This document shows, one piece after another, positions 2,910 to 39,274 of a stretch of DNA of 64,000 bases (positions are counted from its first letter, which is position 1; the number at the start of each line of letters is the position of its first letter). The translations under genes and the position numbers were made by a program. This DNA comes from an uncultured Planctomycetia bacterium (GTDB lineage: Bacteria; Omnitrophota; Gorgyraeia; Duberdicusellales; Duberdicusellaceae): contig CAZWJT010000001.1 of the NCBI GenBank assembly GCA_964634935.1, forward strand, positions 288,949 through 352,948, written 5' to 3'. Under the pieces are notes generated by a model. That model had not been told where the DNA came from. It saw only the letters and a list, made by a program, of their open reading frames with translations, and made no database searches.

Positions 2910-5900
2910 TTATTGACAAATATCCGGATCTGCAGTTTGAGCGCAATAGTGATCTTGGCCGATCTGTCTCCAAAGATCATTGCCGGTGAAACTTAAGACG
3001 CTTTCTGTCGTTGTGGGCGATGCTTGGGGGAAACGATCATCATAGACGGAAAGTAATGTTGACGGATTCATGCTCTGCCAGGAAAGATACCCAAGCGGTG
3101 CCTTTCTCCCCCGGTAATCAAAATAACTGGAACTATTTTCCTCGGGACGAAGAGGCTGCATGTACTCATCATCGTAATCAGGATCATCTGGATCATAGAA
3201 ATCAAACATCGTCCCCTTCAGGGTTCTCGTTGTTGCGGCTGAACAACTAGCACCACTACAGACCTGCCAATCTTCCAAGACTTCAGTAGCATACGGAGTA
3301 ATAAACAAAGAATTATAAGAATAAGAATTTTTGTCAATGGTATTGGGAAAATTTGCCGCGTTAGCTTGGATATGGTTTGCTTGCAGCGTATTCTTCTGGG
3401 TAACCACAGCATTACGCAGTTCCTGAGACATAGCGTAATAATATTTATAACTGCCATCAGGATTTTTGGATAAAACATCGTCAGCGCTTACCCATACACT
3501 CTGCGCATCAGGAGTATCCTCAGCAACAACTCCTGTGTATCCGGTGATCAACCCGTTCGCATCCTTAGATACTCCAACCTTGACATACGGATAATTCAAA
3601 TATACCTTAAATGATGGTACGCTCTGTGGATCAGCAAAAGCGTTAGACAGCGTGAACACTTTCCTAGGTGTTGCAATGTGTGAGATTTTCCAGTCCTGGG
3701 TATTATAATCACCCTTCAGATAAACGCTTTCTTCGCTAATCAAGGTAAAAACCGCTGTTTTCCCTGCGCTATTGGTACCAGGAAGACTCTGCGCGTTTGA
3801 AAGACGAATAGGGTGCTCGGCATAGAAAAACCCATTAAAATCATCTCCTTTTGCGGTCTTAAATTTTGCGATATTAATATCGACCAGAGTTACCTGGCGG
3901 TTGGTCTTCCAGTTAAAAAATTGTTTTTTGCTAGCAAATTTCTGCTCATCTTCCAGTCCGCTATTCAGCGATGAAACAACCGCATCAATATCTTGATCTG
4001 CAGAAATATACACTCCTCCGGTCTGAGCCATCTCTTTATAGCGGCTTGATTCACCGACCGGATTATCCGGATCATCAAAAATCCTGGTAAACTGCGGTTC
4101 GATTTTCTGTACCCCAGCCTGGAAAATACCCTCAACCCCAGTTGCTCCCTGTACAGGAGGGTTGCTCAACAATGCTAGATATTCGCTAAATCCCTGAGGT
4201 TGCAGAAGCGCATTTAAAGCATGGATTTTGCGGGCTTGGCTGTCTTCATTGTTTATATCGACCCCATAACGATATTCGGCATCGCCAAACATGGCTTCAT
4301 TCTTATCAGAATCACCTGCGTTGAGAAAACGATTAAAATATGGATAGGGAATCTGCGCCTGATTATAACAATTTCCCCAGCAGGAAAAATATTCCACGCA
4401 AGCCTGGGTAGAACTACAGTCAAATGCGCTATAACAGGCATCCCGGCACTCTTGGCATGTTTCACAGCCAGGGCACATTGAAATATCACCCCAATCATCA
4501 AGACAAAACCTGCACTCATCTGTGCAGCTACAATTGACCGAACAGGATTCTGCATTCTGCCAGCACTGATCGCAGGCAGGCCCCGTGGAACAACCGGAAA
4601 AACATGCATCAAAAATAGCACTATCCCATTGCGTACCAACGCTTGTATCTTTTGCTTTTACATATTGGGAAGAAAGATTATTATAACACTCATCGGTCAG
4701 ACAAAAGTTCCCTTCTGCGTCTTTCTTCCGATATCGCCACCCGGTTGCGATCGAACTATCTGGACCCTTGCTCACCTTACAGCCAGAAGAACCCTCGTCG
4801 CATTTTTCAGTAGCATAAAGAATGACCGGAGACTCGTTCGCTGTTTTTCCTGTGTACTTATCGGCTAGAACTTCTACTGCCTGGCCGTCCGAACGAGCTA
4901 CGGTCGTTCTCTTCCAGCTATATGCATCAGACAGACCACCCGGCAACTGAAACCACAGATCATTTAAATTCCCTAATTTATCCTTAAAGGGACGAAAAAC
5001 CAGATTACCGAGCACAAAGGAATTTGATTGCCATTGGGGAACAGACGCTGAAAGACTGTTGGTATTCGGATTTAAGGAAAAACGCACAATTTTAATATTG
5101 GAATTGCTTGCTGGAAAAAAGTCGCTTGCGCCGTTAAGCGTCGTAAGTCCATAATACGTTGACGGCTCTGAAGTAAGAGTTCCATAGGTCTCACTGTAAT
5201 AATAATTGCTTCCTGTGTGTTGCGTTCCATAAAAAAATGTGTCTTCCCCCCAAAAAGCCCACGGCTTTGTATCAGAAGAACCCCAATTACCCGCAAGCCA
5301 ATCGCCGTAAGTTTTATATCCCCGGGACCAACCTGTTGCCGCAGAATATGACCAAGCACCAAATGGGCCAGGAATGACGTTATCATTCGTGAAAGTTTTA
5401 TGGTGCGCTCGCCATCCCCAGTATGGAGCAGGAGCCATTCCCAATTCTTCTATCTGGATATTGCCGTCGAAATCATCGAAGTAATGGGGAGCGGGCATTT
5501 GATAACGCATCTCATATTTGATAGTCCCCGCGGCGGACATTTCACCAATCTGATTAAAAATGAGCCCATGAGAACCGCTTGGAGCAAATTTTAGATTCCG
5601 GTTTGTGTGGACTTTTCCTCCTTTAAAGTCGTAGAGCCCTTTGCCCGAAAAAAGCAAATCACGGTTTGAAAAAAATGCGTATTGATACATCGGATTCGGC
5701 GCACGCCGGCATTCAAGAAAACGAGACACGCTTTCGTTTGTGCTTAAACCCCTGGCATAAATATACAAAGTTCCCTCGTTGATTTCTGCTTTGGCTTTAA
5801 AACGCATGGTTCCATCGTCCCAGATGTAAAAACCATTGGTATCGATCGAAGGGCCATCTGTCCCCTGTGGATATTTTAGCTGGGGAGCGTAGAGCGGGTT

Positions 5901-6134
5901 GGCATTGGTTGTTTCCCAAAGCCAATCATGCTGTTTTGCTTCCCACAGACAAATTTTTTTCGCCGCTTCGGCGGTATAAAATCCCTGCAAAGAATTCAAA
6001 TGATTCCGCTGGAACTGGGTTGAAGAAACATACTCATAAATATTAACCGCCGAAAGAGAAGATACAAGAAGCGCGATGAAAAGCGCAAAAACAAAAGCAA
6101 CGGCTTTTTTGTTGGAAGTATTCTTTGCTTTCAT
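2910..6134 (-). CDS. 1074-aa giant protein with an N-terminal TM/signal-anchor and a cysteine-rich module, probably exported. It is the terminal gene of the Tad-like operon. Function unknown.
   Basis: N-terminus KKAVAFVFALFIALLVSSLSAV. W/Y/G/N-rich beta-like composition. A dense Cys cluster (CFSGCSTGPACDQCWQNAESCSVNCSCTDECRFCLDDWGDISMCPGCETCQECRDACYSAFDCSSTQACVEYFSCWGNCY). I recognised no catalytic motif. Confidence 0.5.
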   Translation of the reverse strand: MKAKNTSNKKAVAFVFALFIALLVSSLSAVNIYEYVSSTQFQRNHLNSLQGFYTAEAAKKICLWEAKQHDWLWETTNANPLYAPQLKYPQGTDGPSIDTNGFYIWDDGTMRFKAKAEINEGTLYIYARGLSTNESVSRFLECRRAPNPMYQYAFFSNRDLLFSGKGLYDFKGGKVHTNRNLKFAPSGSHGLIFNQIGEMSAAGTIKYEMRYQMPAPHYFDDFDGNIQIEELGMAPAPYWGWRAHHKTFTNDNVIPGPFGAWSYSAATGWSRGYKTYGDWLAGNWGSSDTKPWAFWGEDTFFYGTQHTGSNYYYSETYGTLTSEPSTYYGLTTLNGASDFFPASNSNIKIVRFSLNPNTNSLSASVPQWQSNSFVLGNLVFRPFKDKLGNLNDLWFQLPGGLSDAYSWKRTTVARSDGQAVEVLADKYTGKTANESPVILYATEKCDEGSSGCKVSKGPDSSIATGWRYRKKDAEGNFCLTDECYNNLSSQYVKAKDTSVGTQWDSAIFDACFSGCSTGPACDQCWQNAESCSVNCSCTDECRFCLDDWGDISMCPGCETCQECRDACYSAFDCSSTQACVEYFSCWGNCYNQAQIPYPYFNRFLNAGDSDKNEAMFGDAEYRYGVDINNEDSQARKIHALNALLQPQGFSEYLALLSNPPVQGATGVEGIFQAGVQKIEPQFTRIFDDPDNPVGESSRYKEMAQTGGVYISADQDIDAVVSSLNSGLEDEQKFASKKQFFNWKTNRQVTLVDINIAKFKTAKGDDFNGFFYAEHPIRLSNAQSLPGTNSAGKTAVFTLISEESVYLKGDYNTQDWKISHIATPRKVFTLSNAFADPQSVPSFKVYLNYPYVKVGVSKDANGLITGYTGVVAEDTPDAQSVWVSADDVLSKNPDGSYKYYYAMSQELRNAVVTQKNTLQANHIQANAANFPNTIDKNSYSYNSLFITPYATEVLEDWQVCSGASCSAATTRTLKGTMFDFYDPDDPDYDDEYMQPLRPEENSSSYFDYRGRKAPLGYLSWQSMNPSTLLSVYDDRFPQASPTTTESVLSFTGNDLWRQIGQDHYCAQTADPDICQ

Positions 6135-6215: not shown

Positions 6216-6770
6216 TCAATTTCGTAAAGATACAATCGTTGATAACCGATAAATAAGCGGTTCAGCAAGCCTCGCGCCCTGGTAGGTATCGATAAACAAA
6301 TTAAGCGAAATCGAATAGGCTGAACTTTGGGTGGTCGGACTGATAGTAAATCCTTTTTCGCCTTGAGCAGAATCGATATACAGATTTTCCACGAGCGTTT
6401 TTTCCTCTAAAATCGTGCTCCCCGAACGCAGCTGGCGCATGAGCTTAGTGCCGCTTATCGTATATACGATGTCTCCCGCGTCCTGTCCATTTCCCCAGAG
6501 AAGAACACCTTCATGCTCGAAATAAACCGAAAAAGTAACCCCTGTGCCTGAGGCATCAGGAAACACGTGTCCTGTTCCAGACTGCATTAATTCTTGAGCC
6601 ATTCTCGTAAGGGCAACCTGAGCGCGTTGTTGAAGATGCAATTTTCCTGAAAACTGGGCCCAGCTTAACCGCCCTACTGAAGTGATGCTAAACACCAAAG
6701 AAAGAACCAAAGAAAAAACAGCGGTTGCGATTAAAGCTTCTGAAATAGTAAATGCTCCCTTATGCCTCAT
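6216..6770 (-). CDS. Pseudopilin/minor pilin-like protein with a prepilin-type N-terminal hydrophobic segment.
   Basis: MRHKGAFTISEALIATAVFSLVLSLVF resembles the G-F-T-L-I-E class III signal, with the Glu displaced by one. It overlaps the upstream gene by 4 nt. Confidence 0.5.
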   Translation of the reverse strand: MRHKGAFTISEALIATAVFSLVLSLVFSITSVGRLSWAQFSGKLHLQQRAQVALTRMAQELMQSGTGHVFPDASGTGVTFSVYFEHEGVLLWGNGQDAGDIVYTISGTKLMRQLRSGSTILEEKTLVENLYIDSAQGEKGFTISPTTQSSAYSISLNLFIDTYQGARLAEPLIYRLSTIVSLRN

Positions 6771-7297
6771 TGTACCGAAGAAATCACTGTCTGCAACGCG
6801 ATTGGCGAAGAAATCTTTCCGTCGCCGTTTACGTCCTCCCCGACATCAAGAACTCCGTTCAAATTCGTATCCTCCCCAATGATCCGTCTCCCGGCCCGGA
6901 AGCAAATGACGACTTCCGCCTTAATGATATCGGATAACAGCTGCGTCGCGTTATGGAACCGTTCAATATAAAACACGCCTGAAAATTTCTCTGCTACTCC
7001 GGAGAAAAAAAATGTTTTCTCTGCGTCAGTAAATACATTAATCCTTGGATTCTCTGAATTTGTACGATCGTAGGCAAGATGGTTGCTTAAAATACTGCTT
7101 ACTCCCTCGCGCTGCAGGTCTTCAAGTTTACCGCGAGCCGCTTCAACAGCCTTGGTAAGAAAAGAGGCTGAATCCACGCCCTGGAAAAGCACAGGATAAA
7201 CAGTTGCGACGACCCCGGCCACAAGGGCGATGATAGCCACAGAGAGCAAAACTTCAACAATAGTTAATCCAGACCGCTGGGTTCCTCGAAACATCAT
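6767..7297 (-). CDS. Pseudopilin/minor pilin-like protein (prepilin-type N-terminal cleavage/methylation-like domain).
   Basis: MMFRGTQRSGLTIVEVLLSVAIIALVAGVV, i.e. G followed by LTIVE with Glu at +5, then a hydrophobic helix. Confidence 0.55.
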   Translation of the reverse strand: MMFRGTQRSGLTIVEVLLSVAIIALVAGVVATVYPVLFQGVDSASFLTKAVEAARGKLEDLQREGVSSILSNHLAYDRTNSENPRINVFTDAEKTFFFSGVAEKFSGVFYIERFHNATQLLSDIIKAEVVICFRAGRRIIGEDTNLNGVLDVGEDVNGDGKISSPIALQTVISSVQ

Positions 7298-7387: not shown

Positions 7388-9559
7388 TCAATCCTGAGGA
7401 GTGAAAATTTCTTTGGCAACAACGATACCCCGTGAACGCATGTCTTCGTAGAAACTTGGAATAAATCCCGTAGGGGTAAAATACCCTTTTACCTTTCCCT
7501 GGGTATCAAGGCCCGTTTGCCGGAAAAGAAAGATATCCTGCAAATTCACATGGGTATCATCAAGCATGCCAACGACTTCGGTGATCTGAATTACCTTACG
7601 AGTGCCGTCTGACAGGCGCGCGGTATGGACAATAAGATGTATCGCTGAGGCGATCATCTCGCGGATAGCCCGGATAGGAAGCTCAAGTCCAGACATAAGC
7701 AGCATTGAATCAAGACGAATCATGACGTCATGGGTCGAGTTTGCATGAATCGTTGAAAGCGATCCATCGTGTCCCGTATTCATCGCTTGCAACATATCCA
7801 GAACTTCTTTCCCGCGGACTTCACCAACAATAATTCGGTCAGGACGCATACGCAAGGCATTCCGAAAGAGATCGCGGATGGAAATCTCTCCTTTCCCTTC
7901 TATATTCGGTGGGCGTGCTTCCAGGCGTACCCAGTGGGTCTGATTCAGCTTCAATTCGGCCGAATCCTCCATAGTTACGATGCGTTCCCGTTCTGGAATA
8001 TAATGGGAAAGTATGTTTAAAAATGTGGTCTTTCCGGACCCGGTACCTCCTGATACAAGAATATTACGCCGGGCAATCACTGCTCCTTCTAAAAATTGAG
8101 CCATAGAAGGCGTAAGACTGCCAAATTTATCAATCAAATCCTGCATAATCAGCCTCTGTCTGGCAAACTTTCTGATAGTCAGCGTAGGACCAGTAAGGGC
8201 TAACGGAGGAATAATGGCATTCACACGAGAACCATCAGGAAGGCGGGCGTCAACGTAAGGATTAGACTCATCAATTCTTCTGCCAAGAGGAGCAAGTATC
8301 CGTTCGATAACAATGCGAACCTGCTCATTCGCGGTAAACTTTTTGTTGGTCGATTCAAGAAGCCCGTTCCGTTCAATATACACCTGGTCTTTATTGTTCA
8401 CCATTATTTCTGTAACTGAAGCGTCCTTCAAAAGATCTTCAAGCGGGCCCAAACCCAAAGCCTCATCGATAATTTCTTTGATAAACCGGTTCCGTATCTC
8501 AAAAGATGACAGAAACCCTCCCCCTTCCTGAGTCAACAGGTTCGAAACTATTTTCTCGGCTTTTTCCTTCAATGATTTTGCTTTTTCATAATCAGCAGTG
8601 AGAATTTCCACCGGCATACGCTTTAAATCCATCTCTTCAATCAACCGTTGGTGAATTCTTTTCTTGAGCTTTACAATCTCATCGTCCTCGGGCTTGCTCA
8701 ACCCCATAGAAACCGGAGATTCCATAATCCCCATGCGCACCAAAAAATCCTGAGGTGAAGATTCGATTGAACCCTTATTCATGCGCATTTCGGAAAGTTC
8801 CGCGTGTTTTATGTAGATGTCTTCGGCGCTGATCAGCTGGGCGGTAAGTAATTTGATTGCCTCGCTCACTTTGCTGCGCTTGTTGTCCAATACAACTGGA
8901 ACACCCCTATTTAAAGCAAGACCGACAATCTGCCCTTCTGAGGGAACTTTCGCGAAAATTTCTAGAGGAAAAAGAAGCTTAATTTCCTGCCAGCTGACAG
9001 CTCCCCGGCTTTCAGCGCGGTTGAGGACAATTTTTATCATCTTGAGCGGAAAATGCAGAGATTGAAACGTATCTAAAAACCAATCCGTTTGATACACAGA
9101 AAGAACGTCTGGAGTAACGATGAGGAAGATCAGATTTGACGTGTCGAAGATACGAATTAAAACATCGGTTAAATCTCTCCCGGCATCGATAATGATAAAA
9201 TCATACGCCAAATTGCGAAACAGCTCAAAAATATTTTTTACATGCTCAGCGTTGATTTTGGATATTTCTTTGGGATGGAGAATCGCGGGAAGAAGATGTA
9301 GATTTTCATTGATCGGGGTAACGTATTTCTCAATTGTATTCCCTGATTTAACTTCGTCCCAAGACTGGAGTAAATGCAGCATCGATTTTTCGGTCTGGAC
9401 GTTAAACATTTTTGCCATGTCTTGCGGACCTGACAAATCAAGATCGACCAGAAGCGTTTTTTTTCTTTGTTCACCAAGCGCTACAGCAATATTCAAAGAA
9501 AGCGTCGTTTTACCAACACCCCCCTTGGTACTAAAAAAACTTATTATTTTGGCGCTCAT
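7388..9559 (-). CDS. Fused pilus-assembly ATPase: an N-terminal ParA/MinD-like (CpaE/TadZ-like) domain plus a C-terminal CpaF/TadA (VirB11-family) secretion ATPase.
   Basis: N-terminus has the deviant Walker [18 protein letters not shown]. The C-terminal half has [12 protein letters not shown], Asp/His boxes, and a typical CpaF length. 723 aa in total. Confidence 0.75.
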
Positions 9560-9651: not shown

Positions 9652-11229
9652 TTATTCAAGTTCAAAGACGATCGGAACCTCGATCCAGAGTTCTTTTTCC
9701 TCTATCCGTTCAGGAAAAGCGGGATACGGAGCAAGACTGCGAACAGTTTTAAGAACCGCGTCATCCAGCTCAGGATAACCAGAGGAACGGAGCACTTGCG
9801 CGTTCAAAAGGCTTCCGTTGGAAACAAGATGCAAACTCAGTTTCATCTCTCCCTGCCAAGAATCTTCCTCGGCGCTTGGAGGATATACAACGGTAGCAAG
9901 AATCTTCCTCTGAATATCCGCGACATACATACTCAGGTCTCCCCCGATAGTTTCATTCTCAAAAGGAGAAACAAGACGCGAACCCTGAGCAAGCTTCTTA
10001 AGCTCTTTATCCTCGTTCTCATATTTAATCAATTCGGGAGTCAGCGCAATGACAAGCTCGGTTTTTTCATCCTGAAAATCCTTTGACCTAAAGAGCGCTC
10101 CGACAATAGGAATATTCCCGAGAGCCGGCAGTTTCTCGATATTCTTCGATACCGAATTCTGGATAAGCCCTCCGATAAAAATCGTTTCACCTGGTTTTAA
10201 AAAAAGATCCGTTGACGCATTGCGCTTTGAAAACGCAGGAATAATAATACCCGAAGCAGTAACTGCATTCGCCCAATCGATATCGCTTACTTCCGTATAA
10301 AGATTAATTTTAAGCATATCTTCTTCGGTCACCCGGGGGCGAATTTTCAAAATGACGCCATACTCTTTATATTCCACATTCGTGGAGGATCCTGTCTGAT
10401 TCGCTGTAGTAGTGACGACCGGAACCTCTCCTCCAACCAGAATCTTCGCTTCTTCTCCGCTTAAACACATAAGCTTGGGTTGGGATAAAATCTTACCTTT
10501 ATTGCGTTTCACCAACATATTGATTCTTGTGGTCAGCGCATCTCGAGAAAGGCTGACGACTTTCGTAAAAAGCTTGCCTTTGCCCCAGCGGTCAAGCGTA
10601 GTTGAAATGCCGCTATCCTCTCCCCCGGCAACATATGGCTCTTCACGAACGTTGATATAGTTCTGCCAATCAAAACCAAGATTATCTTCAAAATCCTTAT
10701 TCAGCTCAAGAATTTCAACATCTATTTTTACCAAATCCCTCTCAACCTTAGCAACAATAAGGTTCTCAACATAATCCTTGAAAGGAAGAGTCAACGTAAC
10801 AATTTTATCAATATCGTCTTTTGTCGCTTCTCCTTTTAAGATAAGCTTCCCGTTCAATTTATTAACGATGATTTCGATATTGTTCAAACCGAGTTTTTTA
10901 TAGAGAATTTCGGAGAGCTTTGTCTTGATGTCAGCAAGATTCTTCTCAAAAACATTCACAGAATAGCTCTCCTTACCAGACGCTGTCCATACATCTACCT
11001 GAGTAATACCTTGCTTCTTACCAAGAATATCAATATAGCCAGGAGTAACTTTTACTACATCAAGAAAGTCTGGATTTAAAATAGAGACGCGCTGTGCTCC
11101 GGTAACGTCAATTCGGCCAATCTCTCCAACCATAAGCTCATAGCTACCCACAATCTGATTTTCCTGCCCGACCAATAGATTTACTCCCAAAAGAAAAAAC
11201 ACGAAAAATGTTAACAAATATTTTCTCAT
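9652..11229 (-). CDS. Secretin (CpaC/RcpA-like) with an appended C-terminal TonB C-terminal-like domain. The start is set at the internal Met (MRKYLL...).
   Basis: Signal peptide MRKYLLTFFVFFLLGVNLLVGQE. Secretin signature LPALGNIPIVGALFRSKD. The C-terminal ~90 aa (VYPPSAEEDSWQGEMKLSLHLVSNGSLLNAQVLRSSGYPELDDAVLKTVRSLAPYPAFP) matches the TonB_C pattern. The ATG at 11229 sits 1 nt from the cpaB stop. Confidence 0.7.
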   Translation of the reverse strand: MRKYLLTFFVFFLLGVNLLVGQENQIVGSYELMVGEIGRIDVTGAQRVSILNPDFLDVVKVTPGYIDILGKKQGITQVDVWTASGKESYSVNVFEKNLADIKTKLSEILYKKLGLNNIEIIVNKLNGKLILKGEATKDDIDKIVTLTLPFKDYVENLIVAKVERDLVKIDVEILELNKDFEDNLGFDWQNYINVREEPYVAGGEDSGISTTLDRWGKGKLFTKVVSLSRDALTTRINMLVKRNKGKILSQPKLMCLSGEEAKILVGGEVPVVTTTANQTGSSTNVEYKEYGVILKIRPRVTEEDMLKINLYTEVSDIDWANAVTASGIIIPAFSKRNASTDLFLKPGETIFIGGLIQNSVSKNIEKLPALGNIPIVGALFRSKDFQDEKTELVIALTPELIKYENEDKELKKLAQGSRLVSPFENETIGGDLSMYVADIQRKILATVVYPPSAEEDSWQGEMKLSLHLVSNGSLLNAQVLRSSGYPELDDAVLKTVRSLAPYPAFPERIEEKELWIEVPIVFELE

Positions 11230-11230
11230 C

Positions 11231-12043
11231 TCACTTCCCCTCGAGGTTAATGGAAGTTTTTTCCGTACCTTTAAACACTTCAACCGTGGGAGGCTCTGGA
11301 GGAGGCGGGGGAGCGGTTTTTTTAATATTCAACAACTTCTCCCATAATTTATCAACCGTGACAAACTCCTTTGAAGTCAATCCCTGATCAAGCGGAGAAC
11401 GCAAGAGCAGCTTGATTCTGCCCATTTCCATAGCAAAGGTAAGCAGCGACGCCTGCTCCGGGGTAAGCGCAAGAGTGATCGTGGAAGGCATTTCACTGCT
11501 GACAGAGGGCATATCCGAAGTCCTGCTTTCAACTGCCAGGATAAGAACATTTTCATACATAGGCACCACGACGCTGCTTCCCTGGGGAAAAGGAAACAAT
11601 CCAATGATATCAACCTTATCTGCCGGGGCAATCATCCCGTTGATTGAACTTATTTTATCAACAGAAATAGTCATAGCTCGATAGCCTTCGGGAGTCAACT
11701 GGGAAAATTTTCCAGTTCGATAGGGTAAAAAAATCTTACTGTTGGTAATCTGCTCTCCTTTCAAGATATCCGAAGTAGCTACTTTGTCCAACGCTGAATC
11801 TACCGAAAAGAATGCCCCTTGTTCGACAAGATTCTGGGGCAGCCTGGCAAGGGCGATATGGTGAGCGGTGATTTTTGTGCCTTTATAGATATCAACCTGG
11901 GCAATGACAACAGGAATTTCTTCTTTCCGCAACAATTCCTGACGGTACTTTTCAACTGTTTGCTGCAGAAGATTTTGAAAGGCAATGACCGCTACAATCG
12001 CAAGAGCTATTCCAATTCCTAAATTAATTATTTTTTTATTCAT
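11231..12043 (-). CDS. cpaB: Flp pilus assembly protein CpaB/RcpC (SAF-domain).
   Basis: N-terminal TM helix, then EEIPVVIAQVDIYKGTKI (SAF-like), then a C-terminal domain. Positioned upstream of the secretin as in Tad loci. Confidence 0.6.
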   Translation of the reverse strand: MNKKIINLGIGIALAIVAVIAFQNLLQQTVEKYRQELLRKEEIPVVIAQVDIYKGTKITAHHIALARLPQNLVEQGAFFSVDSALDKVATSDILKGEQITNSKIFLPYRTGKFSQLTPEGYRAMTISVDKISSINGMIAPADKVDIIGLFPFPQGSSVVVPMYENVLILAVESRTSDMPSVSSEMPSTITLALTPEQASLLTFAMEMGRIKLLLRSPLDQGLTSKEFVTVDKLWEKLLNIKKTAPPPPPEPPTVEVFKGTEKTSINLEGK

Positions 12044-12054
12044 ACTGATTCTAC

Positions 12055-12954
12055 CTACCGCAGTAAATCATCCTTAATTTCAGGAACTGATTTTTTCCGA
12101 ATACTCTCCATAAAATCCTGCAATTTCTGCGATTTGATAGCATTCACTATTTCTTCCCGTATCTCGCTTAACGGTAGCGCTTGAGAAGCAATTTTTTCTT
12201 CAAGCTTCAAGATATAATATTTTCCCCCATCCTGGAAAACGTTTGAAATTTCCCCTTTCTCAAGAGGTAAGACTTTTTCCCAGTATTTATCAGAATGTTT
12301 GTTAATTTCTTCCGCAGTCAACTTGATAAGACCCAGGTCTCCTCCTTTATTTTTCGAAGGTAGAACCGAAAACTGTTCAGCAACCGCCTTAAAACTCTCT
12401 CCTTGAAGTAATTTAATCTGAACCGCCTTTGCAGTATCCATATCGTTTGTGGCAATCTCCCGGATGCGCAACTGAGGAGCGCTCTGAAGGCTTTCTTTAT
12501 TCTTATCGTAAAAACCCTGGATATCTCCTTCAGAAACAATCATCGTCTGGATGATATCCTGCAAGAGGCGTTCAACTAAAATAGCATTGAACGCTTCGAC
12601 AACGTCATCGCCCTTATCGAGGCCTCTTCGTTTTGCTTCCTGGACAAGATATGCCGTGCGGATAAGATTGTCCAGGAATGCGCGCTTCCCTTCATACGTA
12701 GAAAGCTTTGCTTTATCGTCCTCGCTGAGCTTACTCGTATCAACCTGTTTTAAAATCCGGTTAAAATCCTCAAGACCGATTGCCCAATCGTTTACTCTGG
12801 CAAGGAGAGGTCCGTTGATCTTGGCGGTAACCGGATCGGTTTTTGGAGGTTTCGTAGTTGGTTTGTCTTTGGGTTTAAAGAAGTCGAAATTGCATCCGGA
12901 GCAGAGAAGTATTGATATTACGCAGAGCACATAAACTACCGTTCGTTTTTGCAT
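12055..12954 (-). CDS. Secreted parvulin-type peptidyl-prolyl cis-trans isomerase (SurA/PrsA-like).
   Basis: Signal peptide with a Cys-containing end (LLCSGC). Parvulin motif KGGDLGLI...GEISNVFQDGGKYYILKLEE. Preceded by an AGGAGG RBS. Confidence 0.6.
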   Translation of the reverse strand: MQKRTVVYVLCVISILLCSGCNFDFFKPKDKPTTKPPKTDPVTAKINGPLLARVNDWAIGLEDFNRILKQVDTSKLSEDDKAKLSTYEGKRAFLDNLIRTAYLVQEAKRRGLDKGDDVVEAFNAILVERLLQDIIQTMIVSEGDIQGFYDKNKESLQSAPQLRIREIATNDMDTAKAVQIKLLQGESFKAVAEQFSVLPSKNKGGDLGLIKLTAEEINKHSDKYWEKVLPLEKGEISNVFQDGGKYYILKLEEKIASQALPLSEIREEIVNAIKSQKLQDFMESIRKKSVPEIKDDLLR

Positions 12955-13113: not shown

Positions 13114-14337
13114 ATGGCTCCGGTTTTAAGTTACTTTGAAATGATGAAATTCGAAGTTGCCTGCGGTTTCAGTCCTGAAAAAAATAATCTGGAGAAGGCG
13201 GTAAAAGAAGCCAGTGTCCAGATTAAATCGCGCCTCTCTTCTCCCCGGATAGACCTCTGTATTGTATTTTTCAACCTCTCCGTAAAAAACAATACGCTCC
13301 ATTATGAAATACGCAGAACTTTAAATCCCAAAGCGCTCATCGGAACTTCCTCGCCCTATCTCATTTTTGAAAACACCGTATCGCGCTATGGACTGATTAT
13401 CGTGGCTCTGACTGGTATCGAATGCCATACGCAGATGGTAGAAAATATTGAAGAAAAATCGTGGGAACACATTGAAAGTGAACTCAGTAAAACAATTCAT
13501 TCAGAAACACGTACCCGCCGAGATTTGGGGCTTGTTTTCTTTCACGGAAAGATGAAATATCCGCAATCACTTTTAAAGGGATTCCAAAGAAGCATGGGCA
13601 GAATGTTCCCCCTTCTAGGAATCAGCTCTGTTCCGAAAAATGAATTTATCTCCTCTGCCTCTGTCGATACGCAGCAACTTTCGGCAACGGCGATTGCAAG
13701 AAACAGCCTCGTATATGCTAACTTTAATACGGAAAATTTCCGTTACGGATTTGCCCTGCTCCACGGGTTTAAACCAATCGGCAGGCCATCCTTGATTACC
13801 GAAAAAGAAAATAATATAATAAAAACGATAGAAAAAATACCGGCAAACCGGTTTTATCTCTCTTATTTTGACAAAAGCACCCTCGTGCAAAAAGAAACGT
13901 CGTTAAAAAAAATAGCTGGGCTGTACCCGTTGGGAATAGAAACACAAGAGGGCATGGAACCTCTCCTGCGCCCACCTACAGAAACAACAAAAGATGGATC
14001 TCTTGAAGTCATCGGAGATATCCCTTTCTTAACCGCGCGCATGATGATTGCTACCCGACAATCTCTGATACATGCGGCACAAAAATCGTTGCGCACCAGC
14101 CTTCGTCCGGTGAAAAAACCACTCTGTGCGATTATTTTTGAATCTTTTACCCGATTCAAAATGCTTGGTTCACAGTACCGGAATGAACTTTCTCTGATAA
14201 AATCCGACCTTGGCAAAATCCCTCTTGTCGGAGCTCTTTCAAATTACCAGATTGCTCCGCTCTATTCTTCCGAACTCGGAGGAGAAGCAAGAATCCACCA
14301 TTCTACGGTTTGCGTCCTAACATTGGGGGAACGCTGA
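13114..14337 (+). CDS. Probable FIST (N+C) domain sensory protein. The start is uncertain and may be at 13141/13144.
   Basis: About 400 aa and cytosolic. N-terminus KFEVACGFS...PRIDLCIVFF...IGTSSPY...GLIIVALTG fits the FIST_N pattern from memory. The stop overlaps the histidine-kinase ATG (TGATG). Confidence 0.4.
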   Translation: MAPVLSYFEMMKFEVACGFSPEKNNLEKAVKEASVQIKSRLSSPRIDLCIVFFNLSVKNNTLHYEIRRTLNPKALIGTSSPYLIFENTVSRYGLIIVALTGIECHTQMVENIEEKSWEHIESELSKTIHSETRTRRDLGLVFFHGKMKYPQSLLKGFQRSMGRMFPLLGISSVPKNEFISSASVDTQQLSATAIARNSLVYANFNTENFRYGFALLHGFKPIGRPSLITEKENNIIKTIEKIPANRFYLSYFDKSTLVQKETSLKKIAGLYPLGIETQEGMEPLLRPPTETTKDGSLEVIGDIPFLTARMMIATRQSLIHAAQKSLRTSLRPVKKPLCAIIFESFTRFKMLGSQYRNELSLIKSDLGKIPLVGALSNYQIAPLYSSELGGEARIHHSTVCVLTLGER

Positions 14338-15821
14338 TGCCTTCTTTAGGATGCCCACCTCCTGCGGATACCGGTAATTACGTCTCGTTCGTATTTGGTT
14401 TAATCATCTGTTTACTTTCTGGATTCGCCTACTCAAAAATGCGTTCAATCAAAAGCCTCGAGAAGACAGTGGGCGATTTAAACCGAAAAATGTATGAACT
14501 CGATGAACAGGCAAAGTTAATTATCAAGACAGACCTTGAGTTAAATAAAACCCAGGAAGAACTTGATAGAAAAATAACCAGTTTGCTCGCCTTGCAGCAC
14601 TTTTCAAGAACTATCAACATCCTCCTTGAAAAAGAATCCCTTTTCGCAAGTCTCCAGGAAGACACGTTGGAAGACCTCGGGTTTACTTCCTGTTTAATTT
14701 TTACCAAAAAGCAGGGTGAAGAATATGAGATTAAAAAAATCATCACCATAAAAGAAAATTTTGACCAAACACGCTTCCCGTTTGCAGCAATCGTTGATAC
14801 CCTGCAAAAAACAAACGCCTCGATGATCACTTCCGAGGAAAAAACACTCCTGTGCGCCGAGGTTGAGAAAAATATCGCGTTACCAGCTTTTATCATTTTA
14901 CCGCTTAAGATAAAAGATGCCCTGATTGGCGCAATACTCCTCGGAAATACACTTGCCGCAATGCCTGAAGGAAACAAGGAAATCGCCGAAATTCTCGCAA
15001 CACAGATAAACCAGATGCTTGAGAATATCACCCTCTTTGAAGAATTGTATACAATCCAACGCGATCTCGAAAACAGAGTAAAAGAAAGAACACATGATTT
15101 GACAACCGCCTTACAACAGGTAGAACGGGCGAATCGGCTGAAAAGTGAATTCATCTCCTCCGTATCCCATGAGTTACGCACTCCGCTTACCTCGATTAAA
15201 GGATATGCGGCACTCCTTGCTGCAGGTAAATTCGGCTCTCTCCCCGAAGAGATAAAGACTCGCTTAGAACGTATTAACACCCAAGCAGACATGCTCGTCG
15301 CAATGATTAACGATTTACTTGATATCGCCAGAATTGAATCAGGAAGAATCGAACTGGCAATCGCCGAGAACGACTTAAGCAAAACTCTGCGGGAAACCGC
15401 GGAATTGCTCCTGCCTCAAGTGCGCGAGAAAAGTTTAAAAATCAAAATACACGCTCCGGACCAGCTACTGGGTTTTTTTGACAAAACGCTCATTGACCGG
15501 GCTCTGATTAACCTGCTCAGCAATGCGATAAAATTTACCCCCGAAGCAAAAACGATCGAACTGAGCGCAGAAGAAAAAGAAAATAGGCTTATCCTGAAAG
15601 TCAAAGACGAAGGCATGGGAATCTCGGATGAAGATAAAGAAAATATATTCAAAGAATTCTACCGGACAAAAGAAGCACAAAAAGCAGCGATTAAAGGAAC
15701 AGGCCTTGGTCTTTCCTTGGTAAAAAATATCGTCACGGCCCATAAGGGAACTATCGAGGTGCAGAGCACATTGGGATTGGGTTCAACGTTTCTCATAAAA
15801 TTGCCGAAAAAGAATGTTTAG
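14337..15821 (+). CDS. Sensor histidine kinase (TM helix, GAF-like domain, HisKA, HATPase_c).
   Basis: H-box SHELRTPLTSIKGYA. N, G1 and G2 boxes (LLSNAIKFT, KDEGMGI, GTGLGLSLVKNIV). The start is placed at the ATG overlapping the upstream stop. Confidence 0.8.
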   Translation: MPSLGCPPPADTGNYVSFVFGLIICLLSGFAYSKMRSIKSLEKTVGDLNRKMYELDEQAKLIIKTDLELNKTQEELDRKITSLLALQHFSRTINILLEKESLFASLQEDTLEDLGFTSCLIFTKKQGEEYEIKKIITIKENFDQTRFPFAAIVDTLQKTNASMITSEEKTLLCAEVEKNIALPAFIILPLKIKDALIGAILLGNTLAAMPEGNKEIAEILATQINQMLENITLFEELYTIQRDLENRVKERTHDLTTALQQVERANRLKSEFISSVSHELRTPLTSIKGYAALLAAGKFGSLPEEIKTRLERINTQADMLVAMINDLLDIARIESGRIELAIAENDLSKTLRETAELLLPQVREKSLKIKIHAPDQLLGFFDKTLIDRALINLLSNAIKFTPEAKTIELSAEEKENRLILKVKDEGMGISDEDKENIFKEFYRTKEAQKAAIKGTGLGLSLVKNIVTAHKGTIEVQSTLGLGSTFLIKLPKKNV

Positions 15822-16746
15822 AGAAAAAATTCTCATCATTGACGATGAACCGTTCATTCGAGATATCTTAAGGACTACACTCGAAGATACCTATGAAATC
15901 TCCGAAGCTTCTGACGGCGAAGAAGGATTACAGGCAATACGCACGCACAATCCGGCCCTGGTAATCGTTGATTACAAAATGCCGAAAAAAGACGGACTGG
16001 AAGTCTGCCGGGAAATCCGCCAGGATCCCCTCTACCTCCATCTGCCAATTATCATGTTAACCGGCAAGGGGGAAACACAAGATAAGATTCGAGGGCTGGA
16101 TACCGGGGTCGACGATTACATTGTAAAACCCTTTGAGCCGAATGAACTCATCGCTCGGGTCAGGATGGTCTTGAAACGCTCTACCCGCGATCTCGATGCC
16201 AATCCGCTCACCCGTCTTCCCGGTAATGTAACCATTATCAGCGAAATCACCCGGTACATGGAAAAAAAAGAAAAATTCGCCACCCTCTATATTGACCTCG
16301 ATAAGTTTAAAGCTTACAACGACCACTATGGTTTTCAGAAAGGTGATGGCCTGATTCGAGAAACAGCTCGAATCATTATTGAAAGTGTTCGCGATAGTGG
16401 AAACTCCGAAGATTTCATCGGACACATAGGCGGAGACGATTTTGTAGTTATCACCTCGATCGAAAAAGCGGAAAAGGTTGCTCAAAAAATCATTGAGCTC
16501 TTTGACTCAAAAATCATCAGTTTTTACAGCGAAGAAGACCGGATGCAGAAATTCATCATCGCCAAAGACCGCACCGGCATCACGCAGAAATTCCCGTTTG
16601 TTTCTATTTCCATAGGAATCGTCGATAATAGTTTCAAGGAATTTTCGCACGTTGGTGAAATTTCTGAGATCGGTGCGGAATTAAAACGGTATGCCAAGAC
16701 TTTCGCGGGAAGTGTATTTGTAAAAAACCAGCGCAAAAGCTTATAG
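15814..16746 (+). CDS. Response regulator: REC domain plus a GGDEF-type domain with a degenerate GGDDF signature.
   Basis: REC motifs (IIDDEP..., D at DYKMPKKDG, KPF). GGDEF-fold region DLDKFKAYNDHYGFQKGD, with HIGGDDF in place of RxGG(D/E)EF. 8-nt overlap with the kinase gene. Confidence 0.75.
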   Translation: MFREKILIIDDEPFIRDILRTTLEDTYEISEASDGEEGLQAIRTHNPALVIVDYKMPKKDGLEVCREIRQDPLYLHLPIIMLTGKGETQDKIRGLDTGVDDYIVKPFEPNELIARVRMVLKRSTRDLDANPLTRLPGNVTIISEITRYMEKKEKFATLYIDLDKFKAYNDHYGFQKGDGLIRETARIIIESVRDSGNSEDFIGHIGGDDFVVITSIEKAEKVAQKIIELFDSKIISFYSEEDRMQKFIIAKDRTGITQKFPFVSISIGIVDNSFKEFSHVGEISEIGAELKRYAKTFAGSVFVKNQRKSL

Positions 16747-30822: not shown

Positions 30823-32013
30823 TTATTTATTCTTACGGAAAAAAATAGCAAAAGGAAGACCAAGAAAAAACATTTTGCCCAAAATGTCAAACGTAGGCTC
30901 TGAAACAAACCCCGAGGGAGCATTGGTAGTGGTGGCTAAGTCACCTAAATGCGAGTATGTAAGATACACATAATCGTTATACATTTGAAGCGAAGTGTTA
31001 CTCGGCAAACCGCCCCAGAAAGAAACACTGGTGTACAAAACCTCCAATTCCCAGCCTGTGCCGTTAAAATAGGCAAGGTTGAGATTGTAAGCTCCGGAAC
31101 CTGTTCCGCTTTCATCCGTGACATAACTGATGTAAGCATACCCTCGAGAATCCAAAGCCAAAGAAGAGTAATAACCGGTAGCAAAGGCTGAATCCACTAA
31201 ACTCATGGTCCATCCTGTACCGTTATAGGCAGCGTAGTAAAGATCATTCGCGGTAGTGTCCCTATAGCTAACCCTTCCATAGCCTTGAGCATCAAGCACA
31301 AAAGACACCTGGTCAAAGTTACGGCTGCTGTCAACAGTTGTAAAAGACCATCCTGTACCGTTAAAATTCGCGTACATAAGATCTCCGCTGTCGCGGACAT
31401 ATACAATCTGCGCGTACCCTTGTTCGTTGAGTGCAATTGCGGTCTGCTCAGACAGAACGTTAGCTTGATCATCCAAAGAAGTATGGGTCCAGCCTGTACC
31501 GTTGAATACGGAATATACCAAACCAGAGCCAAAATCATTGTAAAAACTTATGTGCGCGTAGCCTTGTAAGTCAAGCGCTAAAGATGAAGCGTACCCATCA
31601 TAACGATCATAGCTTGTTTTTGAAATATTCCAACCCGTTCCGTTAAACCAGGCATATTTTAAATCAGCTGCCATCTCATCAAGATAACTTATGTGCGCAT
31701 AACCAGAAGCATCGAGTTCGAGAGAACTATACTTTCCCACTGATCCTGCAGAATCAACAAGAACAGTATTCCAAGTTGTTCCGTCAAAAAACGCGTACTT
31801 TAAATCCTTTTGGAAAGCAGTATTATTGTCATAATAACTTACGTGGACAAAACCATTCTGGTCAATCGCAAGTGACATATATTGTGCATCAACCGTGCTG
31901 TCGACAATATTTTCCGTCCAGGCAGCGTAGGCGGCTGTGGGTTCTAAAAAAAGGTTGTGGGGAAAGAAAAAAAAGAATATCCCGATGAAGACGCTAAGCG
32001 GTTTGATACGCAT
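30823..32013 (-). CDS. Secreted repeat protein with about seven ~46-aa FNGTGW-type repeats (beta-propeller-like) and a PEP-CTERM-like C-terminal sorting signal. The start is set at MRIKPL.
   Basis: Signal peptide ending AAYA-AW. Repeats of the form YAxFNGTGW...VDS...SLALD..GYAHISY. C-terminus VSEPTFDILGKMFFLGLPFAIFFRKNK (PEP-like motif, TM helix, basic tail). Confidence 0.55.
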   Translation of the reverse strand: MRIKPLSVFIGIFFFFFPHNLFLEPTAAYAAWTENIVDSTVDAQYMSLAIDQNGFVHVSYYDNNTAFQKDLKYAFFDGTTWNTVLVDSAGSVGKYSSLELDASGYAHISYLDEMAADLKYAWFNGTGWNISKTSYDRYDGYASSLALDLQGYAHISFYNDFGSGLVYSVFNGTGWTHTSLDDQANVLSEQTAIALNEQGYAQIVYVRDSGDLMYANFNGTGWSFTTVDSSRNFDQVSFVLDAQGYGRVSYRDTTANDLYYAAYNGTGWTMSLVDSAFATGYYSSLALDSRGYAYISYVTDESGTGSGAYNLNLAYFNGTGWELEVLYTSVSFWGGLPSNTSLQMYNDYVYLTYSHLGDLATTTNAPSGFVSEPTFDILGKMFFLGLPFAIFFRKNK

Positions 32014-32316
32014 AGAGAAAGCATACCACAAAAGAAATAAAACGGAAAGACATACATACGATAATACCTGTTGCATGATTTCGGGGGTAGGTTTTAGGAT
32101 ATAGGAAGTAGCGTGAAAAGAAAACAATTCTGTTCATGAAACCATACATAGTATCCGCTCGTTCTCTGCCGTAATTGGGAAACTTTATTTTTTGAGGATG
32201 GAAAGTTTCTTTCCCTGTAAATCAGAAAATACTATTGTTTTACAATGATACCACGCCCTTCATTGACAAACTGCAGTCACAAATGATACTGTGCGTAGAT
32301 GAACCAATGGGATGAC

Positions 32317-35101: not shown

Positions 35102-35542
35102 TTACGGCTTGGGAATCCCAATGAGCGTAAACACCATTACAAAGATAGCAACGGTTTCAATAATACCCAGCACCATCAGATAGTTGCCAAAACCTTTTCC
35201 TGTCTCACCCAAAGCATCCGCAGCCGCGGCTCCGGCTTTACCCTGAAGCCAGGCAGATGCAGCAAGGGCGATACCGGCAAAGCCTCCCAGAATTATCTGA
35301 TAGAGATAACTCTCTGGCGGCAAATTTGCAGCCCGGATAGCATTCCGTACTATCATTCCGTAGACGGTTTGAGAAAGCGGAGCACCAACAAAAGCAATCA
35401 TAATAAAGGGGGCAGCCTTATTCTGTAAATAGGCTTTTTTCCAAGCTCCCACCGCCGCCATAGCCGCAGCTCCAGCCCCAAGAGCTGAACCAACCGCCGC
35501 TAATGCAATTGAAAGACTCATATCACCAAAGCCACTCACCAT
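35102..35542 (-). CDS. atpK: V/A-type ATPase proteolipid subunit K.
   Basis: Gly/Ala-rich four-helix hydrophobic protein, last gene of the V-ATPase operon. Confidence 0.7.
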   Translation of the reverse strand: MVSGFGDMSLSIALAAVGSALGAGAAAMAAVGAWKKAYLQNKAAPFIMIAFVGAPLSQTVYGMIVRNAIRAANLPPESYLYQIILGGFAGIALAASAWLQGKAGAAAADALGETGKGFGNYLMVLGIIETVAIFVMVFTLIGIPKP

Positions 35543-35543
35543 A

Positions 35544-37352: not shown

Positions 37353-37966
37353 GCAACAACCTCCTGCAATGCCTCTTTACGCTGGATATTCGATTTTGCG
37401 ATTTTACCGGTTACTACTGCCGCGGTCCGAACATCACCGAGATAAATTTGGATGCGGCGGATACATTCTCTCGTTTCGGGAATTTTGACTTTTTCAAAAA
37501 GATTCACCCGCTGCGTGGTAATTCTCAGTTCTTCCCGCAAAAGGGAAAGTTGCTTTTCGAGAATGATAAATTCAATCTTTAACGTAACCATATCCTTAAC
37601 GGCCTTCAGTCCATAATCCACCCAGAGAGGTACAAGCACCAAATCGTATTCTTCTTCTCGGAAACGAACATCCTGAAAAACAGGAATATCAATCCCGGCA
37701 ACATTGTTCTGGGCAGTTTCAACCCGCTCAACCCGCACAAGCCCGGTCAAATCAATCGTATCAGAAAAAAGCTCAATCCATTGGTCAACCTCAGATTGCA
37801 AGGTACGGATTGAATTTTGCATCGATTCTTGGAGACGCTGAATTTTTAAAATCTCAAGCTGTAATTGCTGTTTTTTAATCTGCAATGTCGGTAGATAACG
37901 GACAAAACGCTTCAGGGCGTCTTTCTGTTTTTTGAGCTCGTTTTTTGTAAGCTTAACTTTAATCAC
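37349..37966 (-). CDS. atpD: V/A-type ATPase subunit D.
   Basis: 205-aa coiled-coil protein starting MIKVKLTKNELKKQKDALKRF. Confidence 0.7.
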   Translation of the reverse strand: MIKVKLTKNELKKQKDALKRFVRYLPTLQIKKQQLQLEILKIQRLQESMQNSIRTLQSEVDQWIELFSDTIDLTGLVRVERVETAQNNVAGIDIPVFQDVRFREEEYDLVLVPLWVDYGLKAVKDMVTLKIEFIILEKQLSLLREELRITTQRVNLFEKVKIPETRECIRRIQIYLGDVRTAAVVTGKIAKSNIQRKEALQEVVA

Positions 37967-37977
37967 GTTAAAACGTT

Positions 37978-39270
37978 TTATTTCGGCCAGAATTTTTTAA
38001 GTAGATCCGTCCGAAAACTGGTTTCTTCCGGAGAAAAACAACTCGCGAGAATCTTCCAGCCGTTATCCAATGCTTCTTCCAACGGAATATTCACGCGTAA
38101 ATTCATCATTTGCTCTTCAAAGAGCCGTCCATACTTGAGAAGTTTTTTATCCCACTCGCTTGTCCTAAACCCCATAGACCTTTTTTCTTCCGCTTCCATG
38201 TATTGCGCATAGAGCTGTATCATCCCGTCCATGATTGCCCTATGGTCTTCACGAGTATCTTTGTTGACTAACTGCTTCAGACGGCTTAAAGAACCGAATG
38301 GCTCGATTCTTCCCTTACGCAGATAAAATTGTCCTTCCGTAATATACCCGGTATTATCCGGAACCGGATGGGTAACATCATCGCCGGGCATTGTAGTTAC
38401 AGCAAGAATAGTAATGGAACCCGCCCCTTCGAAATCAACCGCCTTTTCATATCGCGAAGCAAGCTGGCTGTAAAGATCCCCGGGGTATCCCCTGTTCGAT
38501 GGCACCTGCTCCATGGTAATAGCTATTTCTTTAAGCGCGTCGGAAAAATTAGTCATATCAGTAAGAAGCACCAGCACTCTTTTTCCTTCAAGGGCGAACT
38601 TCTCAGCCACTGCCAGAGAAAGATCAGGAACCATCAACCCTTCAACAATAGGATCAGACGCCGTATGCACAAAAAATATGGTCCGGCTGAGTGCTCCGCC
38701 CTCTTCCAGGGCATCTTTAAAATAGATGTACTGATCATATTTAAGGCCGATACCGCCCAGAATAATCATATCGACTTCCGCTTGGAGAGCGATTCGAGCG
38801 ATCAATTCATTATAAGGCTCTCCAGACACTGAAAATACCGGAAGCTTCTGTGATTCCACAAGAGAGTTAAAAATATCGATCATCGGGATATTCGTACGAA
38901 TCATCCGGCGCGGGATAATCCGTTTTGCCGGATTCACCGCGGGGCCAGCAATTTCAGTAAGATTCTCGGTAACCGGAGAACCGTTATCCCGAGGCATGCC
39001 ACTTCCGTTGAAAATACGCCCAAGCATCGCCGGAGAAAATCCGACACGCATCGGATCGCCCAGAAAACGCACCTCATCACCCGTAGAGATTCCCCGAGAG
39101 CCCGCGAAAACTTGAAGATATACCAGATCTCCATCAAGCCGAATTACTTGAGCTAAAGATTTTCCGCGGCTGCTGGTGATTTCAGCAAGCTCCTCATAAG
39201 CCACATGCTCTGCGCGGACAGTGATAACATTACCAACGATACTCAGGATTTTCGTGCATACTTTTTTCAT
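37978..39270 (-). CDS. atpB: V/A-type ATPase subunit B.
   Basis: [34 protein letters not shown] motif characteristic of the V-type B subunit. Confidence 0.85.
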
Positions 39271-39274
39271 ACTG

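Follow-up and report, generated by a model that had tools for sequence, protein, structure and literature searches.

Tad systems combine a pilus-positioning protein, TadZ or CpaE, with a motor ATPase, TadA or CpaF. Literature on the unfused proteins describes polar or site-specific localization for CpaE/TadZ and a requirement for it in secretin assembly. In Caulobacter crescentus, an in situ map places a ring of CpaE around CpaF, modeled as six CpaE dimers per CpaF hexamer (2:1) held together by receiver domains (PMC13170226). In tad locus 1 of Bdellovibrio bacteriovorus HD100, the two proteins are described as a fusion, TadZA; depletion of tadZA-tadB abolishes predation, and RomR, a polarity hub, is bound by the TadZ part with its linker, which is both necessary and sufficient for this binding (bioRxiv 10.64898/2026.07.08.737194). 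For the fusion as such, the same preprint refers to previous work. Here, we describe tadZA in a 64-kb stretch of contig CAZWJT010000001.1 (assembly GCA_964634935.1, Omnitrophota by GTDB lineage), hereafter the window, and confirm that it is a real, conserved gene joining the positioning protein TadZ/CpaE to the motor ATPase TadA/CpaF. Given that the architecture is already known from Bdellovibrio, Omnitrophota provide a new, phylum-wide example and not a new kind of protein.

As in Bdellovibrio, tadZA in the window follows rcpC and a secretin gene, with no separate tadZ in the locus, and a predatory or host-dependent lifestyle is a further likeness. The orthologue from a Bdellovibrio sp. (L005, 740 aa) aligns with the window protein end to end, and Bdellovibrio and window TadZA are 25% identical in the N-terminal domain (N-domain) and 52% identical in the TadA part. 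Bdellovibrio, however, has a longer linker with many Q, S, and T residues, whereas in Omnitrophota the linker is constant in length and has conserved motifs of its own. In addition, tadB comes after tadZA in Bdellovibrio (the genes of Bdellovibrio sp. HCB288 are arranged as RcpC, secretin with a BON domain, TadZA, TadB) but not in the Omnitrophota window, and the Bdellovibrio secretin carries a BON domain but lacks the TonB_C domain found in Omnitrophota.

The TadA part is 45% identical to Caulobacter CpaF and shares its layout of two N-terminal domains (NTD1 and NTD2) and a C-terminal domain (CTD), and the N-domain falls into the same ParA/MinD subgroup as CpaE/TadZ. Caulobacter nevertheless uses two genes, a CpaE with a receiver-like domain, and a 2:1 ratio, while the window protein would be a covalent 1:1 unit and has no receiver domain. 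The TadZ proteins of Eubacterium rectale (PDB 3FKQ) and Aggregatibacter actinomycetemcomitans likewise have a ParA/MinD-family ATPase domain dedicated to Tad, but differ in carrying an atypical receiver domain (ARD) and an atypical Walker A motif. A looser, purely functional analogy may be drawn with archaeal FlaH/FlaI, and with the Epd secondary ATPase, where a secondary P-loop protein is associated with a VirB11-like motor; TadZ profiles match archaeal type IV pilus (T4P) components. FlaH and FlaI are, however, separate proteins, and FlaH is RecA/KaiC-like rather than ParA/MinD-like.

Two ATPases in one open reading frame

A sequence-only reading of the window had proposed that a ParA/MinD-like domain of CpaE/TadZ type and the secretion ATPase CpaF/TadA form a single polypeptide, and Pfam, NCBIfam, the PDB search, and the orthologues described below all agree with it. 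The domain search suggested there classifies the N-terminal region as ParA/MinD type in both Pfam (AAA_31, CbiA, and ParA at residues 4 to 206, E values 2e-19 to 2e-12) and NCBIfam (MinD-type models at residues 3 to 252). Further along the product, Pfam places T2SSE (PF00437) at residues 368 to 650 (E value 1e-63) and NCBIfam places TadA/VirB11/TrbB models at residues 328 to 668. In a sequence search of the PDB, MinD/ParA structures match residues 3 to 251 and Caulobacter CpaF (9e24, 8rkd) matches residues 331 to 712 with an E value of 1e-113. Both nucleotide-binding motifs named in that reading are present (KGGVGKT at residues 12 to 18 and GGTGSGKTT at residues 504 to 512), and its C-terminal CpaF proves to be a complete TadA/CpaF (residues ~295 to 723), 45% identical to the solved Caulobacter protein.

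CpaF, and not PilB, GspE, or VirB11, is also the closest characterized relative of the TadA part over NTD1, NTD2, and the CTD (E value 1e-113), with the archaeal GspE-type secretion ATPase, FlaI, and VirB11 following at 1e-42 or weaker, and a Foldseek search with the AlphaFold2 (AF2) model again returns CpaF (E value 1e-37, 45% identity). The coordinates of the gene, its domains, and its operon are collected in Table 1. There is no clear Shine-Dalgarno sequence ahead of the tadZA ATG at 9559, and this start was kept because the orthologues begin at the same residue.

Table 1. Parts of tadZA and the surrounding operon, in window coordinates
Feature	Position	Strand	Evidence and remarks
SurA/PrsA-like peptidyl-prolyl isomerase, first operon gene	12055..12954	(-)	Pfam Rotamase_2, SurA_N_3
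CpaB/RcpC	11231..12043	(-)	TIGR03177 158.8 bits, cutoff 71
CpaC/RcpA-type secretin with C-terminal TonB_C, upstream of tadZA	9652..11283	(-)	Pfam Secretin, T2SS-T3SS_pil_N, TonB_C
tadZA	7388..9559	(-)	Uninterrupted open reading frame, 723 codons + stop; TadZ ATPase domain fused to TadA/CpaF
TadZ-type ParA/MinD-fold ATPase domain, aa 1-250	8810..9559	(-)	No receiver-like domain ahead; Pfam, AF2, Foldseek, BLASTP
Deviant Walker A TKGGVGKT, aa 11-18	9506..9529	(-)	Signature Lys12, P-loop Lys17; near-invariant in 120 Omnitrophota orthologues
Interdomain linker, aa 251-294	8678..8809	(-)	Length fixed among orthologues; low prediction confidence
Amphipathic motif, aa 270-279, consensus xFWxKIGLxE	8723..8752	(-)	Conservation; candidate membrane-targeting helix, putative function
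TadA NTD1 three-helix bundle, aa 295-368	8456..8677	(-)	AF2 helices 292-310, 317-346, 353-368
TadA NTD2 + catalytic CTD, aa 369-723	7391..8455	(-)	Walker A, Asp box, Walker B, His box; T2SSE, CpaF matches
TadA Walker A GGTGSGKTT, aa 504-512	8024..8050	(-)	Motif in sequence
Pilin-like protein, 176 aa, downstream	6767..7297	(-)	Prepilin-type N-terminus G|LTIVEVLL; N_methyl 19.3 bits, cutoff 21.2
Pilin-like protein, 184 aa, downstream	6216..6770	(-)	N_methyl 17.5 bits, below cutoff
1074-aa Cys-rich protein, last operon gene	2910..6134	(-)	N-terminal hydrophobic segment; no Pfam match

Conservation of the fusion across Omnitrophota

The identical 723-aa protein is present in an independent Logan assembly of run SRR12133403. 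Searching 5.8 billion proteins, we find at least 119 further proteins of 718 to 738 aa that are 59 to 76% identical to it and align over 99 to 100% of its length; the named sources among these are Candidatus Omnitrophota/Omnitrophica metagenome-assembled genomes (MAGs). The segment matching residues 250 to 300 comprises 46 to 52 residues in all 120 aligned sequences and is almost gapless, and such a constant joining segment is what a real, constrained single polypeptide would be expected to look like. Among 1.84 billion representatives of clusters at 50% identity, ~40 further clusters align end to end at 40 to 48% identity, and ~20 more have a recognizable N-domain. The check for orthologous fusions in related genomes that had been suggested thus yields at least 119 Omnitrophota proteins with the end-to-end architecture. 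Annotation pipelines already detect both domains, as seen in database entries such as “Flp pilus assembly CpaF family ATPase/MinD-like ATPase.”

Conservation extends to the active sites. In the N-domain, KGGVGKT, the DxD motif (residues 39 to 41), and the Walker B residue D125 are invariant or more than 90% conserved in the 120 sequences, which are 59 to 76% identical overall. On the TadA side, catalytic residues of the Walker A, Asp box, Walker B, and His box, including residue 531, D532, and E535 as well as NTGHDGS, are invariant in the 120 orthologues. Both domains are intact and under purifying selection.

The N-terminal domain as the ATPase half of TadZ

We scanned one genome per GTDB species, using aligned fused proteins as the query, and then checked the reading frames. 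In ~50 unfused loci, the N-domain aligns to residues ~140 to 415 of a separate open reading frame (ORF) of ~400 to 440 aa (21 to 32% identity, E values down to 3e-39), which stops 4 to 25 nucleotides ahead of a CpaF gene of ~450 aa. These loci belong to Chloroflexota, Bacillota, Acidobacteriota, Actinomycetota, Planctomycetota, Nitrospirota, Armatimonadota, Desulfobacterota, and others, and in them the two separate genes described for canonical Tad loci are seen directly, tadZ and then tadA. In BLASTP comparisons, the N-domain scores 80 to 137 bits against ~40 tadA-linked TadZ proteins and 72 bits against Aquifex MinD (a single MinD comparator), and Aquifex MinD itself scores only 37 to 77 bits against the same TadZ proteins. 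From the tadZ-tadA gene context and the higher scores against TadZ than against MinD, we identify the N-domain as the ATPase half of TadZ/CpaE, in the same gene-order position 5′ of tadA.

What had been called a CpaE/TadZ domain is only partly so: the ATPase half is fused, and the N-terminal receiver-like domain is missing. The unfused TadZ proteins have 135 to 200 extra N-terminal residues (~140 to 175 in the scanned ORFs), and a Pfam Response_reg match lies at the N-terminus of two of five such ORFs (L011 and L012); the other three have no Pfam match there, which fits an atypical receiver domain. In the window protein, the Walker A motif begins at residue 11, and the receiver-like domain of TadZ has therefore been lost in the fusion. 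The N-domain also lacks the atypical TadZ Walker A (K/RGGxGxS/T, with the P-loop Lys missing) and has KGGVGKT instead. This motif had been taken as typical of CpaE/TadZ; it is indeed present, but it is the general deviant Walker A of the ParA/MinD family, and the full KGGxGK[ST] occurs in only 20 of 57 unfused TadZ proteins, the remaining 37 carrying variants without the second Lys.

In terms of fold, the N-domain resembles both the ParA-family protein 3EA0 of Chlorobium tepidum (Foldseek template modeling [TM] score 0.91) and, behind it, MinD (4V03, ~0.81), each with the full deviant Walker A, and it shares with MinD a candidate amphipathic motif after the ATPase domain that is similar to a membrane-targeting sequence (MTS). 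It differs from MinD in its context, with no minC or minE in the tadZA locus, in family scores far under the cutoffs, and in its greater closeness to tadA-linked TadZ.

Predicted structure and the interdomain linker

The AF2 model, built from the 120-sequence alignment, has a mean predicted local distance difference test (pLDDT) score of 77.6 and a predicted TM score (pTM) of 0.50. Residues 1 to 250 form a confident ParA/MinD fold (pLDDT 85 to 95); residues 261 to 292 are of low confidence, with one short helix at 270 to 275 (pLDDT <50), and are followed by three helices over residues 292 to 368 and then by a two-lobed ATPase. In CpaF structures, a disordered NTD0 (residues 1 to 79) precedes the three-helix NTD1, NTD2, and the CTD, and NTD0 extensions vary among homologues (PMC11300603). 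In the fusion protein, this NTD0 is replaced by the TadZ domain and linker.

The linker of ~45 aa contains two blocks conserved in Omnitrophota, DLYIxHKxLxELR (residues ~247 to 259) and xFWxKIGLxE (residues 270 to 279), with an acidic stretch after them. Short MTS-like motifs of basic and hydrophobic residues stand at the C-terminus of many unfused TadZ proteins, e.g., GLFKLWARGK, LRSIFGG, and KRFSLFG, and for Caulobacter CpaE a C-terminal amphipathic helix for membrane association is reported (PMC13170226). On account of these two likenesses, the motif at residues 270 to 279, which resembles the MTS of MinD, may be the membrane-association helix of TadZ, kept inside the fusion as an amphipathic helix. 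The conservation of this MTS-like linker motif is new here.

The operon and its neighborhood

tadZA is the fourth gene of a minus-strand operon that runs from a peptidyl-prolyl isomerase (PPIase) through CpaB, a secretin with TonB_C, and tadZA to two pilin-like genes and the gene of the 1074-aa protein. The order PPIase, CpaB, secretin with TonB_C, TadZA recurs in three other Omnitrophota loci (L002, on CP070807.1; L010; and L016), in which the TadZA N-domains are 41 to 47% and the TadA domains 61 to 79% identical to those of the window. Neither the window nor these three loci contain a second tadZ or tadA. The TadB/TadC platform of the Omnitrophota tadZA system, which is not seen at these loci, must be encoded elsewhere in the genome or be very divergent. 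An operon of the form PPIase, CpaB, secretin with TonB_C, TadZA, and pilin-like genes, with no tadB/tadC within the 64 kb, is new here.

Several of the accompanying genes are observations in their own right. The PPIase is the first operon gene also in L002 (6515-7411) and L016 (4233-5264), with a lipoprotein-like N-terminus (LLCSGC), and may serve as a secretin chaperone or as a stand-in for a pilotin. A C-terminal TonB_C domain is found on the secretin in all four Omnitrophota loci (the window; L002, 8263-9891; L010, 696-2366; L016, 6131-7954), and such a secretin-TonB_C fusion is unusual. The large protein at the downstream site differs by locus, with 1809 aa on the opposite strand in L002 and 800 aa in L010; the 1074-aa protein of the window may, from its gene position only, be a pilus-tip or surface protein. 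In L002, a 212-aa ORF with a T2SSE match lies directly after tadZA (12236-12871, plus strand) and could be a TadA fragment or a duplication remnant.

Farther out, genes transcribed divergently from the operon at 13114-16746 (plus strand) encode a protein with a FIST domain, a histidine kinase, and a GGDEF-containing response regulator. They are not conserved at this position in L002, and a cyclic di-GMP input beside the pilus genes is possible. At 35102-42096 (minus strand), an ORF with a match to the Pfam c-subunit family ATP-synt_C (35102-35542) is followed by a 602-aa membrane ORF with ~5 hydrophobic segments, and from position and size this may be a V/A-type ATPase operon. V/A-type ATPase operons are discussed as symbiosis related in the Omnitrophota literature. 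Two further minus-strand ORFs, of 434 aa (30823-32127) and 445 aa (58793-60130), have no significant match to a Pfam family, the second showing sub-threshold BNR_4 and DUF7253 matches.

Distribution and origin of TadZ-TadA fusions

Single-ORF fusions are confirmed in Omnitrophota, in Bdellovibrionota/Oligoflexia, in one WOR-3 MAG, and in several unclassified MAGs. A wider distribution, with full-length fusions in more than 10 phyla, was rejected after the ORF check showed that most scan matches span adjacent tadZ and tadA genes. Around distant fused relatives, the Tad loci are complete: Flp, TadE, RcpC, an A24 peptidase, and two T2SSF genes are present, and tadZ does not occur as a gene of its own. 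In a neighbor-joining tree of the TadA domain, calculated without support values, the fused proteins stand mostly apart from a large unfused clade and are not monophyletic. By BLASTP, some unfused TadZ proteins match the N-domain of the window protein better than the N-domains of Bdellovibrionota do.

A genomics study of Omnitrophota reports that Tad genes are widespread and that TadB/TadC group with Bdellovibrionales, and leaves the fusion unmentioned (PMC10066038). We found no paper describing a TadZA fusion in Omnitrophota. Separately, tandem TadA/CpaF domains, two or three per protein, occur in cluster representatives P0121-P0125, P0128, P0133, and P0136 (three within the 1156 aa of P0121), and are either a different kind of fusion or an artefact of gene calling.

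Alternative readings of the protein and of the machine

Since tadZ and tadA are normally neighbors with 4 to 25 nucleotides between them, one error, a lost stop codon or a frameshift, could suffice to merge two adjacent genes into an apparent fusion. The identical protein from an independent assembly, the continuous architecture in at least 119 orthologues that come from many different samples and sources, and the fixed length and conserved motifs of the linker all speak against such a merger, as does the region upstream, where no ARD-encoding sequence is found and a 92-nucleotide gap runs straight to the secretin gene. We regard its probability as negligible, and the missed stop or frameshift that the sequence-only reading had wanted checked at the junction is excluded by the independent assembly, the 119 orthologues, and the constant joining segment. 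A second question is whether the N-domain descends from TadZ at all or was recruited independently as a generic ATPase of MinD/FlhG type. By sequence, MinD supplies the best named models and the best solved structures (TIGR01969 at 89 bits; Aquifex aeolicus MinD 4V03 at E value 6e-17 when the PDB is searched with the N-domain alone), the Walker A is the full MinD-type motif, and the receiver-like domain of TadZ is absent. The MinD models, however, score far under their cutoffs (89 bits against 202 for TIGR01969 and 73 bits against 213 for TIGR01968), TadZ domains next to tadA reach 137 bits compared with 72 for MinD, and MinD itself reaches only 37 to 77 bits against TadZ proteins; moreover, the full Walker A is shared by 20 of 57 unfused TadZ proteins, and a location immediately 5′ of tadA is the canonical gene order. 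Independent recruitment is, on this evidence, very unlikely. Descent from TadZ would still be compatible with a catalytically dead pseudo-ATPase acting only as a docking scaffold. Many distant fused relatives have an N-domain Walker A that has become degenerate or has disappeared (e.g., KGGVGQT, KSGSGTT, and REGMGQS), and low ATPase activity is reported for E. rectale TadZ in literature citing Xu (2012). Within the clade of the window protein, by contrast, conservation of the nucleotide-binding residues is complete or exceeds 90%, so that we consider a dead domain improbable: the conserved KGGVGKT, DxD, and D125 argue for retained nucleotide binding in Omnitrophota TadZA. This conservation of nucleotide-binding motifs across Omnitrophota TadZA is new here.

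As for the machine, we consider it highly probable that TadZA serves as motor ATPase in a Tad-like (type IVc) machine, either for pili or for secretion, and that in this protein the TadZ ATPase domain replaces the disordered NTD0 of CpaF. Several observations weigh against this. Pfam searches of candidate ORFs and tblastn with four TadB/C queries detect no TadB/TadC (T2SSF) in the 64-kb window; no T2SSF is found next to tadZA in L002, L010, or L016; and no Flp pilin or prepilin peptidase is found in the window or beside tadZA in those three loci. The placement of tadZA in a complete Tad machine thus rests on platform genes that are not seen at the locus, and the downstream pilin-like genes have N-termini of T4P or type II secretion system (T2SS) type, not of Flp/TadE type, with sub-threshold scores. 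E. rectale TadZ (3FKQ) is not retrieved from the PDB by the full-length query at E values of ≤0.001 and is not among the 60 best of the 84 matches that the N-domain query finds at E values of ≤10. The TadA model TIGR03819 gives 340 bits, under its cutoff of 373.15; it describes a narrow, conjugal-transfer-associated TadA subfamily, and failing the cutoff argues only against that subfamily. Finally, the interdomain geometry of the AF2 model is unreliable (pTM 0.50) and supports no conclusion on domain docking, and the dimerization, membrane binding, and stoichiometry of TadZA are predictions. The same locus could also be read as encoding not an adhesive Tad pilus but a pseudopilus-based device for secretion or contact, in which TadZA is the motor and the large downstream proteins are exported or displayed. 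Such a device would account for the T2SS/T4P-type pilin-like proteins together with the 1074-aa protein downstream (1809 aa in L002, 800 aa in L010), the lack of a Flp pilin in the locus, and the unusual TonB_C domain of the secretin, and T2SS/T4P genes are reported to flank giant proteins of Omnitrophota. Yet CpaB/RcpC, the CpaC-type N-domain of the secretin, and TadZ/TadA are hallmarks of Tad, and the distant fused relatives sit in complete Flp/Tad loci. We hold the pseudopilus device to be rather unlikely, and it would alter only the output of the machine, not the identity of the fusion protein.

A proposed hard-wired positioner and motor

With TadZA as a Tad-like motor, the TadA part would, by homology to CpaF, form a hexamer that drives pilin insertion and extraction via a TadB/C platform encoded elsewhere. 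The TadZ part would bind ATP through its conserved residues (Lys12, Lys17, Asp39/41, and Asp125) and form ATP-dependent sandwich dimers, at most three per TadA hexamer, because there is one TadZ domain per subunit. It would also keep the motor in place, either at the inner membrane or at some defined site, via the amphipathic motif of the linker or via another partner. The fusion would hard-wire positioning to the motor at 1:1 and dispense with the receiver-mediated ring; this ratio of TadZ to TadA is expected because both are encoded by a single ORF, assuming no internal translation start or proteolytic cleavage.

A more far-reaching picture, which we think quite unlikely as a whole, is that TadZA marks a distinct Tad lineage of bacteria with a predatory or host-attached life (Bdellovibrionota, Omnitrophota, and some WOR-3 and unclassified MAGs). 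The receiver-less TadZ domain of Omnitrophota would then remain an active ATP switch, and three TadZ dimers per hexamer, anchored by the internal helix, would clamp neighboring motor subunits to the membrane and gate extension versus retraction, in a system with a TonB_C secretin, T4P-type minor pilins, and the platform elsewhere.

Omnitrophota TadZA leaves the current picture of Tad systems unchanged. Three features merit further attention: the linker motif and its conservation, a predicted stoichiometry unlike that modeled for Caulobacter, and an operon that lacks platform genes and has a TonB_C secretin. The Omnitrophota set provides natural sequences for asking how TadZ affects TadA, and tadZA after cpaB and a secretin gene is a simple genomic marker of such machines. 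Tad pili are the organelles with which Bdellovibrio attaches and invades, and they are also the chief indication from genomes that nanobacteria of the Omnitrophota live on other cells; essentially the whole sampled Omnitrophota clade carries a hard-wired positioner-motor like that of the model predator.

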